Shown in pieces: positions 43,109 to 56,765 of a stretch of 64,000 nucleotides of DNA. Each line of letters begins with the position of its first letter. Within the stretch, counting starts at the first letter, position 1. Position numbers and translations under genes: made by a program. The notes beneath the pieces are model-generated. The model worked only from the letters and a program-made list of their open reading frames with translations. It made no database searches and had not been told where the DNA came from. This stretch comes from a virus: IMG/VR virus record IMGVR_UViG_3300023202_000336, positions 64,001 through 128,000 of that record, one strand, 5' to 3'.

Positions 43109-43627
43109 ATGAGCAAAGTAAAAGCGGTAACGTTTGTTATCGTAGTTGCTGCAGTAACGTTTCTCGTTGTCGAGGGTGTCCTTCCGGTGCTGGTTGCAGC
43201 TTTCGAAGCCGGAGCACAGGACGAACAGAGGTCGTCAACAGCGATAGAAAAGGCAGAGGAACTGCCGAGGACGGTGAAGGTCGAAGCGGTCGCTACGGGC
43301 TACTGTCCGTGCGAGAAGTGCTGCGGTCGATTCGCCGATGGAATAACGGCGAATGGAAGGTCGGTTGAGATGCATCCGTATGGGATTGCCGCTGATCCTT
43401 TGGTATTGCCGTACGGGGCGAAGATCGATGTCCCCGGGTACGGTCGTGCCGAGGTCGACGATACCGGAGCGGCGATGAGTAATTCTGAGGTCCCTCACGT
43501 CGATCTCAGGTTCAAGACACACGACGAGGCTCTCGAGTGGGGTCGACGAGATGTCATCTTAGAGGTCTCGACGGTCAATCTCGTGAGGGACCAGATCGAG
43601 TCCCTCCTCGCCCATACGCTTCGGTAG
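43109..43627 (+). CDS. 3D-domain (MltA-like) cell-wall-associated protein with N-terminal TM/signal segment
   Basis: ATGYCPCEKCC, GITANG, IAADP..LPYG, DTGAAM and HVDLRF motifs. Confidence 0.85.
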   Translation: MSKVKAVTFVIVVAAVTFLVVEGVLPVLVAAFEAGAQDEQRSSTAIEKAEELPRTVKVEAVATGYCPCEKCCGRFADGITANGRSVEMHPYGIAADPLVLPYGAKIDVPGYGRAEVDDTGAAMSNSEVPHVDLRFKTHDEALEWGRRDVILEVSTVNLVRDQIESLLAHTLR

Positions 43628-43667: not shown

Positions 43668-43712
43668 CGAGGGTCGGCCGGTGATTTCTGGATGTTCGGT
43701 CGGCCCTCGTTT
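43668..43712 (+). terminator. Terminator-like hairpin overlapping the first bases of the repeat-like leader
   Basis: CGAGGGTCGGCCG / CGGTCGGCCCTCG then TTT. Confidence 0.55.
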
Positions 43713-43799
43713 ATGCTCGCTCAGGAGCTTTGTATCTGAGACTCGGGCGAAATCCGTCGAGGCCCCGTATCTGAGACGCATCTGATATCGGAGCCTCGT
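43707..43799 (+). CRISPR. Degenerate mini-array in the cas12 leader: one full variant repeat, a 17-nt spacer, a 3'-half repeat and a loop fragment
   Basis: TCGTTTATGCTCGCTCAGGAGCTTTGTATCTGAGAC (43707-43742); AGGCCCCGTATCTGAGAC (43760-43777); GAGCCTCGT near 43791. Confidence 0.75.
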
Positions 43800-43824
43800 C
43801 CCACCAACCGCTAAGGAGAACGAG

Positions 43825-45549
43825 ATGCAAAGAGGACGCGATCCAGCGAATATTTACAGCTTCGCTGCATACGTATACCGCGAGGATTACGAGCGGACCG
43901 GCGATATACTGTTCAATGCGAACCGGTTCGGAAACGCGCTTGTCGCGATCGAACTCCACCGTCGCGAAGAGTGCGAGAAAATACTTCGACAGTGCTCGAA
44001 GGATTACACGGACGCGCGCGCCAAGGAAGACGCGCTCGTCGACCACCTTCAAGCGATCGGCAAGGAGCTGGGTCGATATCGCCAAAAGAAGCGTGAAAAG
44101 AAGACGCCGAAGGAGCTCCGTGAAAAGTACACGGAGGTCGAAGGGCAACTCGAGAAGCATCGAAACAGCGTGGTGCTTCCGATCCGCCGGGAGCTCTACA
44201 GGAGCCCCAAAGTCAAGAAGCTCCTGAAGAAGCTACATGAGAAGGTAACCGCGGATAAAAAAGAAGCGCGGGCCAACAGGAACTGTTACTGGGGGACGGG
44301 TGGTCTCGTGGAGAAGGCCCACGAGAATGACGGAGAAGGGCCGCCTCCGTCATTCAAGCGATTCGACGGAACCGGTCGAATCGGTGTGCAGCTCCAACAG
44401 CAGTCAGGAGCTCCTCCGTGGACCCCGGAGCGGCTCACGAGAGAGAACACTCTCCTGATGCTCGATGTGGACCAGATGCCCGATGATTTCGTCGGCGCCG
44501 ATCTGAACACAAGGTACAAGAAAAGTCAGAAGAAACGCTGTCCGGTCCGTATGAGGATCGGTTCGGAGAAAGCCAAGCCGGTGTGGCTCGACTTCATGGT
44601 CAAGTTCCATCGACCGCTTCCAGAAGGCTGCAAGATCAAAGCAGCCTGGATCCTTTTCAAAAAGGTCGGGACGCATACGAAAACGTATTTTCAAACGCAA
44701 GTGGCGCGTCCCGAGGGGTTCATGAGAGACGACGTCGCCGATGGCGGCCATGTCGCGGTCGATCTTGGCTGGAGAAAGTTCGAGGACGACCGGGTCCGCG
44801 TCGCCTACTGGCTCGGAGATGATGGAGAACAGGGTGAGATCGCTCTCGATCCGGAGCTCCTGAGCCGAGACCGGAAGAACCGGTCACTCCAGTCGATCTA
44901 CGATCGACAGTTCGACTCCATGAAGGAGCTCCTCCATGGCTGGATCACCGAGCACAAGAGTTCGGTTCCGGAGTGGCTGAAGGAGGAGACGAAGACCCTG
45001 CCGATCTGGAGATCGAGGTCCCGCTTGGCAAAGGTCATCATCAAGTGGAGGAAACACCAGTTCGACGGCGACGTCGAACTGTATAAAACCGCCGAAAAGT
45101 GGCGGAAGAAGGACAAGCACCTCTTCGACTGGCACAAGTTCCAGGCGAGGATCATCAGGGAAAAGCGGAAGGCGCTTTTCCGAGAGGAAGCGGCAAAGCT
45201 CGCGAGGCGTTATCGCTGCGTCATATTCGAAGATATGAAGATCAGCGATATGGCCAAGGACTCACCGGTGAGCAGCGATGACATGGATCCAATCAAGGAT
45301 ATCATGAAACTCGCGTCGCCAGGGGAGCTTCGAATGGAGTTCGAGAGTCGATTCCGAGACTCCACCAGACAGAAGACGAAGAACACGACGAGAGAATGTT
45401 CGGAGTGCGGTTTCGTTGACGGAGAGTTCGACTTCGTGAATCTGTACCACGAATGCCCGAACTGTCAGGCGGAGAAGGATCAAGATCTCAACGCCTGCGA
45501 GAACCTCCTCGCACGAGAGTTGGGGCCACCAGACGCTTCGGCCGCTTGA
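43825..45549 (+). CDS. cas12m: Type V CRISPR effector, Cas12m (V-U1)-like, 574 aa
   Basis: RFDGTGRIGVQLQQQSGAPPWTP, CYWGT and V(R)MRIG..W matching the remembered Cas12m pattern; RuvC-I VAVDLGWR (D313), RuvC-II IFED (E469), CSEC/CPNC zinc finger, DQDLNA (D554); adjacent array. Confidence 0.8.
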   Translation: MQRGRDPANIYSFAAYVYREDYERTGDILFNANRFGNALVAIELHRREECEKILRQCSKDYTDARAKEDALVDHLQAIGKELGRYRQKKREKKTPKELREKYTEVEGQLEKHRNSVVLPIRRELYRSPKVKKLLKKLHEKVTADKKEARANRNCYWGTGGLVEKAHENDGEGPPPSFKRFDGTGRIGVQLQQQSGAPPWTPERLTRENTLLMLDVDQMPDDFVGADLNTRYKKSQKKRCPVRMRIGSEKAKPVWLDFMVKFHRPLPEGCKIKAAWILFKKVGTHTKTYFQTQVARPEGFMRDDVADGGHVAVDLGWRKFEDDRVRVAYWLGDDGEQGEIALDPELLSRDRKNRSLQSIYDRQFDSMKELLHGWITEHKSSVPEWLKEETKTLPIWRSRSRLAKVIIKWRKHQFDGDVELYKTAEKWRKKDKHLFDWHKFQARIIREKRKALFREEAAKLARRYRCVIFEDMKISDMAKDSPVSSDDMDPIKDIMKLASPGELRMEFESRFRDSTRQKTKNTTRECSECGFVDGEFDFVNLYHECPNCQAEKDQDLNACENLLARELGPPDASAA

Positions 45550-45556
45550 GAATGTT

Positions 45557-45606
45557 TTCGAGCGGCTACGTCGTCGATAAGATGACGTAGTCGCTCGAAG
45601 TCTTTT
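45557..45606 (+). terminator. Terminator between effector and array leader
   Basis: 19-bp stem with G-U pairs, GATAA loop, then GTCTTTT. Confidence 0.75.
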
Positions 45607-45645
45607 ATGCGATATTGTTTATATATAAAAATTTTGACAGTACTG
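45607..45645 (+). promoter_or_regulatory. AT-rich CRISPR leader/promoter
   Basis: GATATTGTTTATATATAAAAATTTTGACAG in a GC-rich context. Confidence 0.65.
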
Positions 45646-46229
45646 TTAGATATGCCCGCTCAGAGGCTTCGTATCTGAGACGAGGCGCGTGATCTCGAAC
45701 TCCTGGAGTATCCGCGTCGCTTATGCCCGCTCAGAGGCTTCGTATCTGAGACTGGGGCCTGCCAAACCACGCCCGCTTATGCCCGCTCAGAGGCTTCGTA
45801 TCTGAGACAGCGCTAGGTGAAGGCTGGCGGGGATGCCACGACCGTTTATGCCCGCTCAGAGGCTTCGTATCTGAGACGGATCGTTTTGGTGGTATCCCGC
45901 TTATGCCCGCTCAGAGGCTTCGTATCTGAGACGCCAATCCATCCAGGTACCCGCTGATGCCCGCTCAGAGGCTTCGTATCTGAGACTAGGCGCGTGATCT
46001 CGAACTCCTGGAGTATCCGCGCCGCTTATGCCCGCTCAGAGGCTTCGTATCTGAGACCCGCCTCGAGCACCCGTTTCGGGGGCGTTGATATCCCGCTTAT
46101 GCCCGCTCAGAGGCTTCGTATCTGAGACGACCACGCCTGCCGTCTCCGCGAACTCGGCTTCGCCCGCTGATGCCCGCTCAGAGGCTTCGTATCTGAGACG
46201 CCAATCCATCAAAGCCTCGTACCTGAGAC
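45646..46229 (+). CRISPR. CRISPR array: 9 repeats of 36 nt (CCGCTTATGCCCGCTCAGAGGCTTCGTATCTGAGAC) plus a terminal half-repeat; spacers 35,20,33,19,18,35,35,35,(11) nt
   Basis: Parsed by hand; CTCAGA/TCTGAG hairpin near the 3' end followed by AC, as in Cas12m-type repeats. Confidence 0.95.
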
Positions 46230-48641: not shown

Positions 48642-48677
48642 TTGATTATGCCCGCTTAGGAGTTGCGTATCTGAGAC
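48642..48677 (+). repeat. Solitary CRISPR-repeat variant
   Basis: TTGATTATGCCCGCTTAGGAGTTGCGTATCTGAGAC, same 36-nt register as the array repeat. Confidence 0.85.
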
Positions 48678-48733: not shown

Positions 48734-49378
48734 ATGGCAAGACTGAGCCAAAAAGAAGTCATCAACACGATTCGCGATTGCTACGGCGATTTCGAATCGG
48801 TAAGGGAGGGCGATAACGTCCGGGCCTACATCGGCCCGGATATCGAGGTCGTCGTTCCCCCTGGCGGCCCATTCAAGGACCCCGTCGTGGTCAGCGTTCC
48901 CGAGGAACGTATGCACTACGAGTTTCCGATTACCGCGGGTGGCATCGGCGATGCGGTCTTCTTCTTGAGAAAGAAGACCGCATCGCTGAAGGTCAAAGAC
49001 GGCAAGCGGCTCAAGAAAAACGAGCTGATCGCCCGTCGTGCCCTGTGGATGGCCTTCAAGGCCGCAGTCCCGCTCGAGAGCAAAATCCTCCACGTCGAAG
49101 ACGAGGAGGTGCTTTCCGAGAAGGAGCTGTGGAAGAAGGTGCAACCGAGCAGAACCGAAACGAAGTGGTCCATATTTCTCCGGTACCACTTCGGTCGGGC
49201 GCTCAACCTCAGCATCTGCTGGAACCGGGACGAGGTATGGATCGAACCCGACATCCTGACTCCCGGACGGCAGTCCTGGGTGAGTTCGTACAAGAGTGGA
49301 AGGGATCTCATCGCGAAAGCGATCGAATCAATCCGCGACGAGATCAAGGCACTGCGCGGTGCAGTGATTTTCAGGTGA
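48734..49378 (+). CDS. Hypothetical protein
   Basis: SD GGAGG. Confidence 0.65.
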   Translation: MARLSQKEVINTIRDCYGDFESVREGDNVRAYIGPDIEVVVPPGGPFKDPVVVSVPEERMHYEFPITAGGIGDAVFFLRKKTASLKVKDGKRLKKNELIARRALWMAFKAAVPLESKILHVEDEEVLSEKELWKKVQPSRTETKWSIFLRYHFGRALNLSICWNRDEVWIEPDILTPGRQSWVSSYKSGRDLIAKAIESIRDEIKALRGAVIFR

Positions 49379-54932: not shown

Positions 54933-55404
54933 CGTCAGAGACGAGAAAACACTTAAGGAGGAGGTAGAAGCTCACGAGCGACTGCTTCGGTGCAAAAAGG
55001 TCGAGGTTCGAGACGTCGTAAGACTCGTGAACACAGTGCAGCCGAACGCTCAGTTCAGGGATCATCAAGATATCCCGGGAGTCTGCGTGATAGCGAGGGT
55101 GCAGCGTCGGCATCATACCGAGACAGTCGTTATGTCCGAACCTCCAGAGAGTGGACCGCTCATCAGGGCCCGTCTACAAGACGTGCTCGATAAAGTCGAG
55201 AGGATGGAGAACGTTTATACGAATCATCTTCTTTATGAAGAGCTTCACCCTTTTACCGACGGGAACGGTCGTTCAGGACGGGCGGTATGGCTATGGCAGA
55301 TGTTGCGTACTGATATACCGTGGGGTTATCGATTCGAGCTACCGTTCCTGCAGAAGTGGTACTATGACTCGTTCTCTATGCTCGCTCAGGAGCCTCGTAT
55401 CTGA
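54859..55404 (+). CDS. fic: Fic-domain protein (AMPylase motif intact)
   Basis: HPFTDGNGRSGR; ESNTVEG; SD AAGGAG. Confidence 0.9.
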   Translation: MTKPLPLDVTKLRDFVIESNTVEGIVRDEKTLKEEVEAHERLLRCKKVEVRDVVRLVNTVQPNAQFRDHQDIPGVCVIARVQRRHHTETVVMSEPPESGPLIRARLQDVLDKVERMENVYTNHLLYEELHPFTDGNGRSGRAVWLWQMLRTDIPWGYRFELPFLQKWYYDSFSMLAQEPRI

Positions 55405-55407
55405 GAC
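55372..55407 (+). repeat. Solitary CRISPR-repeat variant forming the last codons and stop of fic
   Basis: TTCTCTATGCTCGCTCAGGAGCCTCGTATCTGAGAC. Confidence 0.85.
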
Positions 55408-55909: not shown

Positions 55910-55988
55910 ATCGAGTCGAGCTACCGTTCCTGCAGAAGTGGTACTATGACCCGTTCACTATGCTCGCTCAGGAGCTCCGTATCTGAGA
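55910..55988 (+). repeat. 79-bp near-identical copy of the fic 3' end (55328-55406), containing solitary repeat variant 55954-55989
   Basis: ATCGA.TCGAGCTACCGTTCCTGCAGAAGTGGTACTATGAC.CGTTC.CTATGCTCGCTCAGGAGC..CGTATCTGAGA in both places. Confidence 0.92.
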
Positions 55989-56075
55989 TAAAAAAAACTA
56001 GTGAATCAGAAAATAGATGATATAGGGTATAATAAAACGAAGGTAGGCGTATTTCTGTAATAAAGGGGGGACGTC

Positions 56076-56765
56076 ATGATAGATGCGATGGTAGCATATT
56101 ACGGTAGGCAATTTCGAGTACGTAATAAGAACGTGTATAGATACCTTTCAGGAATGCAAAAGGATTATAACGAGAGAGCTCGAACGAGGTGTAGAGGGTT
56201 CGAATACATGCGTTTACGGAATAGAGGGTCAAATTACTGTGGGAACCCATTTTGCCCGACGTGTTGGCACCGTAAACAAGAACATCTTATTAGCTTCATC
56301 ATGGATGCTCGATCAGATTTATTATTTTTGAGAGTAACTGACGAGGTCCACTGGGAAGATACACTTAACAAAAGATATCTCGATAAACTAAAAAGTAGAA
56401 AATATAGACTCATAGCTCAATGTATTTCTTTTGATAACCTTATAGGCGTGATCGATGATATCGGGTATAAAATAGCAGGCATATATAGCGCGAGTAGAGA
56501 GGTTCACGATGAGGATACACCAGGAGTGTCTTATGTACACGAGCAGGCGAATGATCCTTTGTCGGAGGTGATAGGAGCGGTAGAAAAGCTCGAATACGAA
56601 GGAAGCGATAAAGAGAGTCTTATACATGATTGGCAAGATACTATGAAGCACCCGTATAAGTTTCGTAGGCACTCGAGGTTTAACGAGTATATTCGTAGGT
56701 TTGAAACGTTTCGTATTGAACGAAGTTGGGCGAAACGCGGAATTGTACCCCGAGGAGGACGTTGA
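56076..56765 (+). CDS. Hypothetical protein with a CxxxxCxxC motif
   Basis: YCGNPFCPTCWHRK. Confidence 0.6.
   Translation: MIDAMVAYYGRQFRVRNKNVYRYLSGMQKDYNERARTRCRGFEYMRLRNRGSNYCGNPFCPTCWHRKQEHLISFIMDARSDLLFLRVTDEVHWEDTLNKRYLDKLKSRKYRLIAQCISFDNLIGVIDDIGYKIAGIYSASREVHDEDTPGVSYVHEQANDPLSEVIGAVEKLEYEGSDKESLIHDWQDTMKHPYKFRRHSRFNEYIRRFETFRIERSWAKRGIVPRGGR

Follow-up and report, generated by a model that had tools for sequence, protein, structure and literature searches.

The stretch of viral DNA analysed here, a window of 64,000 nucleotides (nt) corresponding to bases 64001-128000 of the 180,134-bp IMG/VR virus record IMGVR_UViG_3300023202_000336, carries a gene whose 574-aa product is, judging by sequence and modelled fold, a divergent new Cas12m of type V-M. 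The gene (cas12m) has its own terminator and is followed by an AT-rich leader and a nine-repeat CRISPR (clustered regularly interspaced short palindromic repeat) array, and the locus as a whole probably specifies a DNA binder that is guided by CRISPR RNA (crRNA) and acts without cleavage. The record has direct terminal repeats and is rated complete, while a baseplate-wedge PHROG, an SbcC-like nuclease and an adjoining cell-wall peptidase/3D-domain gene testify to its phage character. An earlier note on this DNA had described the gene product as a Cas12m-family effector encoded by a phage, and this is borne out by phmmer, the fold, the array and the phage genome. Its central claim of novelty, namely that the protein is a possibly nuclease-active member of the family or an evolutionary intermediate between TnpB and Cas12m, found no support. 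The components of the locus are listed below; positions are those of the window unless the genome is named.

43813..43818, + strand: ribosome-binding site AAGGAG, 6 nt 5' of the cas12m ATG (direct sequence reading)
43825..45549, + strand: cas12m gene, an uninterrupted open reading frame (ORF) of 574 aa
45556..45608, + strand: intrinsic terminator directly 3' of the cas12m stop, with a 20-pair stem and then a T-rich tail
45600..45645, + strand: AT-rich array leader with a TTGACA hexamer
45646..46199, + strand: CRISPR array of nine 36-nt repeats, co-oriented with cas12m
46200..46229, + strand: array terminus, made up of an 11-nt shortened spacer 5 copy and, 3' of it, a degenerate 19-nt half-repeat

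A phmmer search of the PDB returned as the best match 23vw_A, “CRISPR-associated DNA-binding protein Cas12m” (E 6e-47, residues 43-563). MmCas12m2 (8hhl, 1e-24) and GoCas12m (8pm4, 4e-22) were also matched, and the TnpB of ISDra2 gave an E value of 0.42. According to the printed alignment 23vw_A itself has the Asp-Glu-Asp (D-E-D) triad, and it was deposited as a DNA-binding protein; a literature search for a paper on the structures 23vw and 23vu found none. The best plasmid match was MsCas12m (WP_013159911.1), with 31% identity and an E value of 6e-41. The AlphaFold2 model, built on 61 relatives, reached a mean predicted local distance difference test score of 91 and a predicted template modelling score of 0.85, and has the fold of Cas12m (WED, REC1/REC2, RuvC with a helical insertion, TNB zinc finger). 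Its top Foldseek matches were 8hhl_A (Cas12m2) and 8pm4_A (GoCas12m), with template modelling (TM) scores of 0.79 and 0.78, respectively, whereas Cas12f, TnpB and all other Cas12 types had query-normalised TM scores of 0.44 or less (Cas12f chains 0.36-0.44, a weak match; TnpB 0.38-0.40).

Because the phmmer matches, the TnpB profile scores and the AlphaFold2/Foldseek fold agree, the protein is a complete type V-M Cas12m rather than a TnpB-like intermediate. An ordinary TnpB, or a form on the way from TnpB to Cas12m that is linked to a transposon rather than to CRISPR, is very improbable. The sole Pfam match of the ORF is indeed the shared Cas12f1-like TNB domain, weak TnpB matches extend across the C-terminal 140 residues, and a separate TnpB of 362 aa is encoded elsewhere on the phage. 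However, the scores of the NCBIfam TnpB models were only 28 and 25 bits, where the cut-offs are 425 and 350, and the protein, at 574 aa, exceeds the ~400 aa of TnpB. Moreover, an array with a Cas12m-type repeat lies 3' of the gene, and neither transposon ends nor tnpA were seen. TnpB identity is thus ruled out by the profile scores, phmmer, the fold and the adjoining CRISPR array. The Cas12 hacker Cas12p was likewise set aside as a different family that depends on trans-activating CRISPR RNA (tracrRNA).

The 574-aa frame and the motif residues on which the earlier note had relied were all confirmed by script. D313 lies in VAVDLGWR (starting at residue 310; codon 44761-44763), E469 in IFEDMK (starting at 467; codon 45229-45231) and D554, together with D552, in DQDLNA (starting at 552; D554 codon 45484-45486), while the C4 zinc finger is formed by CSEC (525-528) and CPNC (544-547), encoded by 45397-45465. 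D554 aligns with RuvC-III Asp579 of MmCas12m2 (numbering of PMC10442227), and the RFDG...VQLQ...GAPP.TP stretch, also pointed out in the note, is alignable with its counterpart in the same protein. In the WED domain, His262-Arg263 aligns with H269/R270 of MmCas12m2, the pair that reads the last repeat nucleotides of the crRNA. The statement that characterised Cas12m proteins have LHLGWR at RuvC-I is true of MmCas12m2, but it covered only proteins with the His-Asp-Asp (H-D-D) site, those of Mm and Go.

Published Cas12m proteins fall into four clades by triad, clades 3 and 4 being the D-E-D types (PMC10442227), and D-E-D is one of the states published for these two clades (D-E-D, N-E-D, D-N-D). 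An exhaustive HMMER search yielded 1,438 cluster representatives at E <=1e-30, and an alignment of 181 sequences was made of the best hits, MsCas12m, a Mycobacterium H-D-D protein and the protein of phage Rctr197k. The full D-E-D triad is present in 132 of these 181 relatives (73%); on this alignment it is the majority, ancestral-looking state of Cas12m and is not special to the protein studied here. Among the catalytic positions D313 is kept in 78%, E469 in 76% and D554 in 97% of the sequences, compared with 95% for W316, 97% for R317 and 94-98% for the zinc-finger cysteines; D552, like D554, is nearly invariant. Of the crRNA-contacting pair, R263 is found in 181/181 and H262 in 168/181 sequences. 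The well-supported branches of the FastTree phylogeny force at least 10 independent losses of the triad, and E-to-R, D-to-N and D-to-G substitutions are present even in members of the query's own clade (19 sequences) that are otherwise intact. Since D313 and E469 show weaker conservation than the residues for RNA binding and those of the zinc finger, and have been lost repeatedly, a two-metal nuclease site does not appear to be what selection preserves in Cas12m. Retention of the third Asp fits metal-mediated strand binding, as observed in MmCas12m2 (PMC10442227).

This distribution bears directly on the notion that the D-E-D RuvC site cuts target DNA, which we consider unlikely. D313 and E469 belong to the motif positions with the lowest conservation and have been lost many times, including in the query's own clade, and the closest solved relative, although D-E-D, was deposited as a DNA-binding protein. 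Furthermore, the D-E-D proteins Ms-, Ap-, Tf- and UnCas12m, the last of which originates from an IMG/VR viral scaffold, bind double-stranded DNA (dsDNA) in a manner dependent on the protospacer adjacent motif (PAM) without dsDNA cleavage (Bigelyte 2024, PMC11013384), so that 4/4 tested D-E-D orthologues showed no dsDNA cutting, and conversion of H-D-D to D-E-D in MmCas12m2 did not restore cleavage (PMC10442227). The triad can therefore hardly be taken, as it was in the earlier note, as the sign of an unusual member. What speaks for a nuclease is that D313, E469, D554 and the C4 zinc finger are all intact and that D552 and D554 vary so little in the family; besides, hydrolysis of DNA by the D-E-D clades 3 and 4 was raised as a speculation by Omura et al. 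2023 (PMC10442227), and the preprint on myxophage MV-1 makes a similar guess for its phage Cas12m (bioRxiv 10.64898/2026.09.14.751636).

The array and its terminus (45646-46229), which lie directly 3' of cas12m, went unmentioned in the earlier note. The spacers measure, in order, 34, 19, 32, 18, 17, 34, 34 and 34 nt and thus form two size classes of 17-19 and 32-34 nt; the mature guide length reported for PmCas12m matches the short ones. Near its 3' end the repeat forms a 6-bp hairpin with AC after it, the architecture of the Mm crRNA scaffold (PMC10442227). It is homologous to the MsCas12m repeat on plasmid pMESIL02, with the stem, part of the loop and the 3' end in common, and the same three elements are shared with the array repeat of Rctr197k and with an array found beside a 35%-identical relative (sample 3300023214). 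No full sigma-70 consensus was called in the array leader (45600..45645), and no Rfam family was matched in the window. A search of the minus strand of the whole 180-kb genome found no repeat-like sequence, hence there is no anti-repeat or tracrRNA candidate; the absence of a tracrRNA, as read earlier from the window, holds for the entire phage.

The same can be said of the adaptation genes. Profiles of Cas1, Cas2 and Cas4, each of which was detected in 6-8 reference genomes used as controls, gave no match in the complete 180,134-bp genome, which extends the absence of cas1/cas2/cas4 beyond the window. The suggestion that the phage borrows the adaptation machinery of its host was not supported, as the array proved identical spacer for spacer in a second sample. 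In a contig from that sample, which has 99.2% nucleotide identity across 2,822 nt, all nine repeats recur and the spacers are unchanged in sequence and order, apart from the first base of spacer 6. Within the array, an internal duplication of 101 nt comprises spacers 1 and 6, each with its flanking repeats, and the two copies of the spacer differ at the first base. The array thus looks like a fixed set of guides that has been reshaped by recombination rather than one fed by host Cas1-Cas2. As a separate observation, JGI sample 3300023214 holds a 99% copy of this Cas12m as well as the 35%-identical relative with the same repeat family, and therefore at least two Cas12m lineages coexist there.

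Taken by analogy with the relatives, from which crRNA processing, PAM-dependent binding and the lack of cleavage are carried over, the probable course of events would be as follows. The array transcript would most likely be cut within the repeats into crRNAs, each keeping the 3' hairpin of the repeat as a handle and ~17-20 nt of the spacer as a guide, and tracrRNA would play no part. The complex of Cas12m and crRNA would most likely bind PAM-flanked dsDNA and block transcription or replication without cutting it, as every Cas12m tested so far does, four D-E-D proteins included. A competing mobile element or a locus of the host would be the target, and the D-E-D triad would serve metal-mediated binding of the displaced strand instead of DNA cleavage.

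Targets of the spacers were sought in several databases. The phage's own genome, searched with a tolerance of 3 mismatches in 18 nt, contained no spacer match, and 19-22-mers taken from five of the spacers had no exact counterpart in IMG/VR. When the whole array was compared by blastn with GenBank phages and PLSDB plasmids, all matches had E values of 0.6 or higher. Spacer 1 has a 24-nt match in an ORF of unknown family of a Woeseiaceae metagenome-assembled genome, with TTC on the PAM side, and spacer 8 a 22-nt match to a metagenome contig, where it falls within an alanine racemase gene and has CTT on its PAM side. Both matches break off abruptly, the remaining 10-12 nt being unrelated, and the other spacers had no match in the same Woeseiaceae genome. 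By our estimate, 596 Gb of sequence should contain a random 22-mer ~0.07 times, the expectation being higher for GC-rich DNA; both partial matches are probably due to chance.

Copies of the repeat were also found far from the array. When the whole genome was searched with the 24-nt repeat core (up to 6 mismatches), 30 copies were detected on the + strand and none on the - strand, 21 of them outside the array; a strict repeat pattern gave 18 forward, 0 reverse and, in the control, 0 matches. All 21 solitary units lie on the coding strand ahead of phage genes, between the upstream stop codon and the ribosome-binding site/start located 15-140 nt downstream, cas12m being one of the genes so preceded. 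They are conserved precisely as far as the 36-nt repeat extends and no further, and most of them keep the stem. Those of the window are given here together with the cas12m leader.

43707..43742, + strand: solitary, slightly diverged repeat copy 82 nt 5' of cas12m
43743..43777, + strand: 16-nt pseudo-spacer (43743-43758) and 19-nt 3' half-repeat (43759-43777), which make the cas12m leader resemble a mini-array
48642..48677, + strand: solitary repeat unit in the gap before the ORF at 48734
55372..55407, + strand: solitary repeat unit
55954..55989, + strand: solitary repeat unit before the ORF at 56076

The unit at 43707..43742 has 4 mismatches in a 30-nt core and keeps all six stem pairs, while for the pseudo-spacer that follows it the genome offers no other site, except for matches with 3 mismatches that are at the level of chance. 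The half-repeat at the array terminus (46211-46229) similarly ends 19 nt before the ATG (46249) of the next gene. Outside the window, units occur at genome positions 1299-2926 and 159638-179601, including a mini-array of three units with ~20-nt spacers (165754-165882). Immediately 3' of three to five units, the final 11 nt of the repeat (GTATCTGAGAC-like) are present once more; such tandem recurrences were located at genome positions 161618, 164395, 165142 and 172930. In most units this last 11-mer of the repeat is preceded by TTC.

Such an arrangement raises the possibility, which we hold with considerable reserve, that Cas12m mainly acts on the phage's own genes by way of the 21 solitary units; silencing of foreign DNA would still be compatible with this, and so is the binder mechanism. 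At the RNA level, Cas12m might cut, cap/protect or mask the unit-bearing leaders of polycistronic phage mRNAs. At the DNA level, the 11-nt-tailed units would yield guides matching the 3' half of the units and could thus direct a roadblock to the TTC-flanked 3' half of every unit. Alternatively, the leader beside each unit might thereby become a guide directed at related phages without the unit. In all these cases the array, fixed and with half-length spacers, would belong to the same hard-wired guide set and would not be an immune memory. The strand bias with its zero control, the sharp 36-nt borders, the mostly kept stem, the position of units ahead of genes (cas12m and the gene 3' of the array among them) and the static array all point in this direction. 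On the other hand, pseudo-guides located 3' of the solitary units gave only chance-level matches in the genome and hence have no second site. Rctr197k, the sole other whole Cas12m phage genome examined, has just one solitary unit, and none occurs in the flanks of two further Cas12m loci. Moreover, an identical pattern would be expected if the units were a motif recognised in DNA by a phage factor, or if they served as RNA decoys against a host Cas12m. In the literature searched, the use of a CRISPR effector on the transcripts of its own virus was not found published. A related array was noticed on an 87-kb viral fragment (IMGVR_UViG_3300027832_000009, 1100-1700, - strand) with no Cas12m in the assembled part; its stem arms vary from copy to copy in a compensatory manner, whereas the loop is kept.

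Several points must be borne in mind that weigh against the view of the locus as a non-cleaving binder of foreign DNA. The intact triad and zinc finger leave room for a weak, conditional or single-strand nuclease activity, and the published assays sought dsDNA cleavage only, in cell-free and E. coli settings. The nearest relative besides the 99% copy is only 37% identical, and the protein sits on a long branch of the tree. The phage itself, IMG/VR, GenBank phages and PLSDB yielded no protospacer, so that interference against a target is presumed, and the 21 solitary repeats suggest that interference with foreign DNA may be one role among others and perhaps not the chief one.

With regard to the surroundings of the locus, the ORF 5' of cas12m (43109-43627) matches L-alanyl-D-glutamate peptidase PHROGs and the Pfam 3D domain and is probably a lysis or cell-wall enzyme. 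The baseplate wedge protein had no tblastn match among GenBank phages, and a search of viral contigs for loci related to this cas12m locus found none. The separate 362-aa TnpB-type ORF (genome 143566-144654, + strand) contains a Cas12f1-like TNB domain (7e-18) and has a weak OrfB_IS605 match; it is unrelated to the CRISPR locus.

Comparison with the described systems places the protein well inside the known range. The D-E-D orthologues of Bigelyte (PMC11013384) belong to the same family, have 536-628 aa, a D-E-D triad and a zinc finger, and operate with crRNA only and without adaptation genes, but share only ~30% identity with this Cas12m, which, unlike them, resides on a complete 180-kb phage with mixed 17-19/32-34-nt spacers and 21 solitary repeats. 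MmCas12m2 (8hhl, 8hio) and GoCas12m (8pm4) resemble it in fold (TM 0.78-0.79), in the RFDG...GAPP stretch of WED, in the crRNA-contacting His-Arg pair and in the 3' hairpin handle ending in AC; they differ in the H-D-D RuvC site, in sequence (21-22% identity) and in their actinobacterial replicons. Parallels in context are Rctr197k (GenBank KX853510) and myxophage MV-1, large phages in which a D-E-D Cas12m is followed by an array, without cas1/cas2/cas4 or tracrRNA. The Rctr197k homologue, of 622 aa and annotated as “similar to transposase”, lies directly 5' of an annotated 1.5-kb CRISPR; it differs from the present locus in the protein (30% identical), the 1.5-kb array and the single solitary repeat. 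The distal repeats of this array are degenerate, and the solitary repeat is found 63 kb away (record position 175442). According to a September 2026 preprint (bioRxiv 10.64898/2026.09.14.751636), the MvCas12m of MV-1 (D305, E463, D555) is accompanied by an array of eight spacers, adaptation genes being absent; it is a protein of 610 aa, compared with 574 aa here. As in the phage studied here, the spacers of Rctr197k and MV-1 have no confident targets.

Solitary repeat units, crRNA-like regulatory RNAs and RNA anti-CRISPRs have been published as well (Shmakov 2023, bioRxiv 10.1101/2023.03.03.530964; Koonin and Makarova 2024, PMC11656645). Like those, the units reported here occur singly and apart from arrays, and one, accompanied by a short pseudo-spacer, lies just 5' of the effector gene; in about a third of V-A loci such a unit is located just 5' of the effector gene. 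In contrast to the published cases, ~21 units are spread genome-wide over a phage that encodes the matching effector, where they head its own genes and are all oriented with transcription.

Subtype V-M was described in a 2024 review as enriched on plasmids, with some prophages encoding it as well, and together with Rctr197k and MV-1 this means that phage-borne Cas12m is already known as a kind. The finding is consequently of little significance as it was first claimed, since D-E-D Cas12m proteins, including virus-derived ones, have been published and bench-tested as DNA binders. Its contribution is a divergent phage-borne Cas12m, at most 37% identical to others, which would mainly be one more compact programmable binder. 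For the family, the frequent loss of the first two catalytic residues provides comparative support for the view that DNA cutting is not maintained in Cas12m. For the biology of the phage, the static array, the guide-length spacers and the 21 solitary units point to the possibility that a CRISPR effector may be used on the virus's own transcripts.

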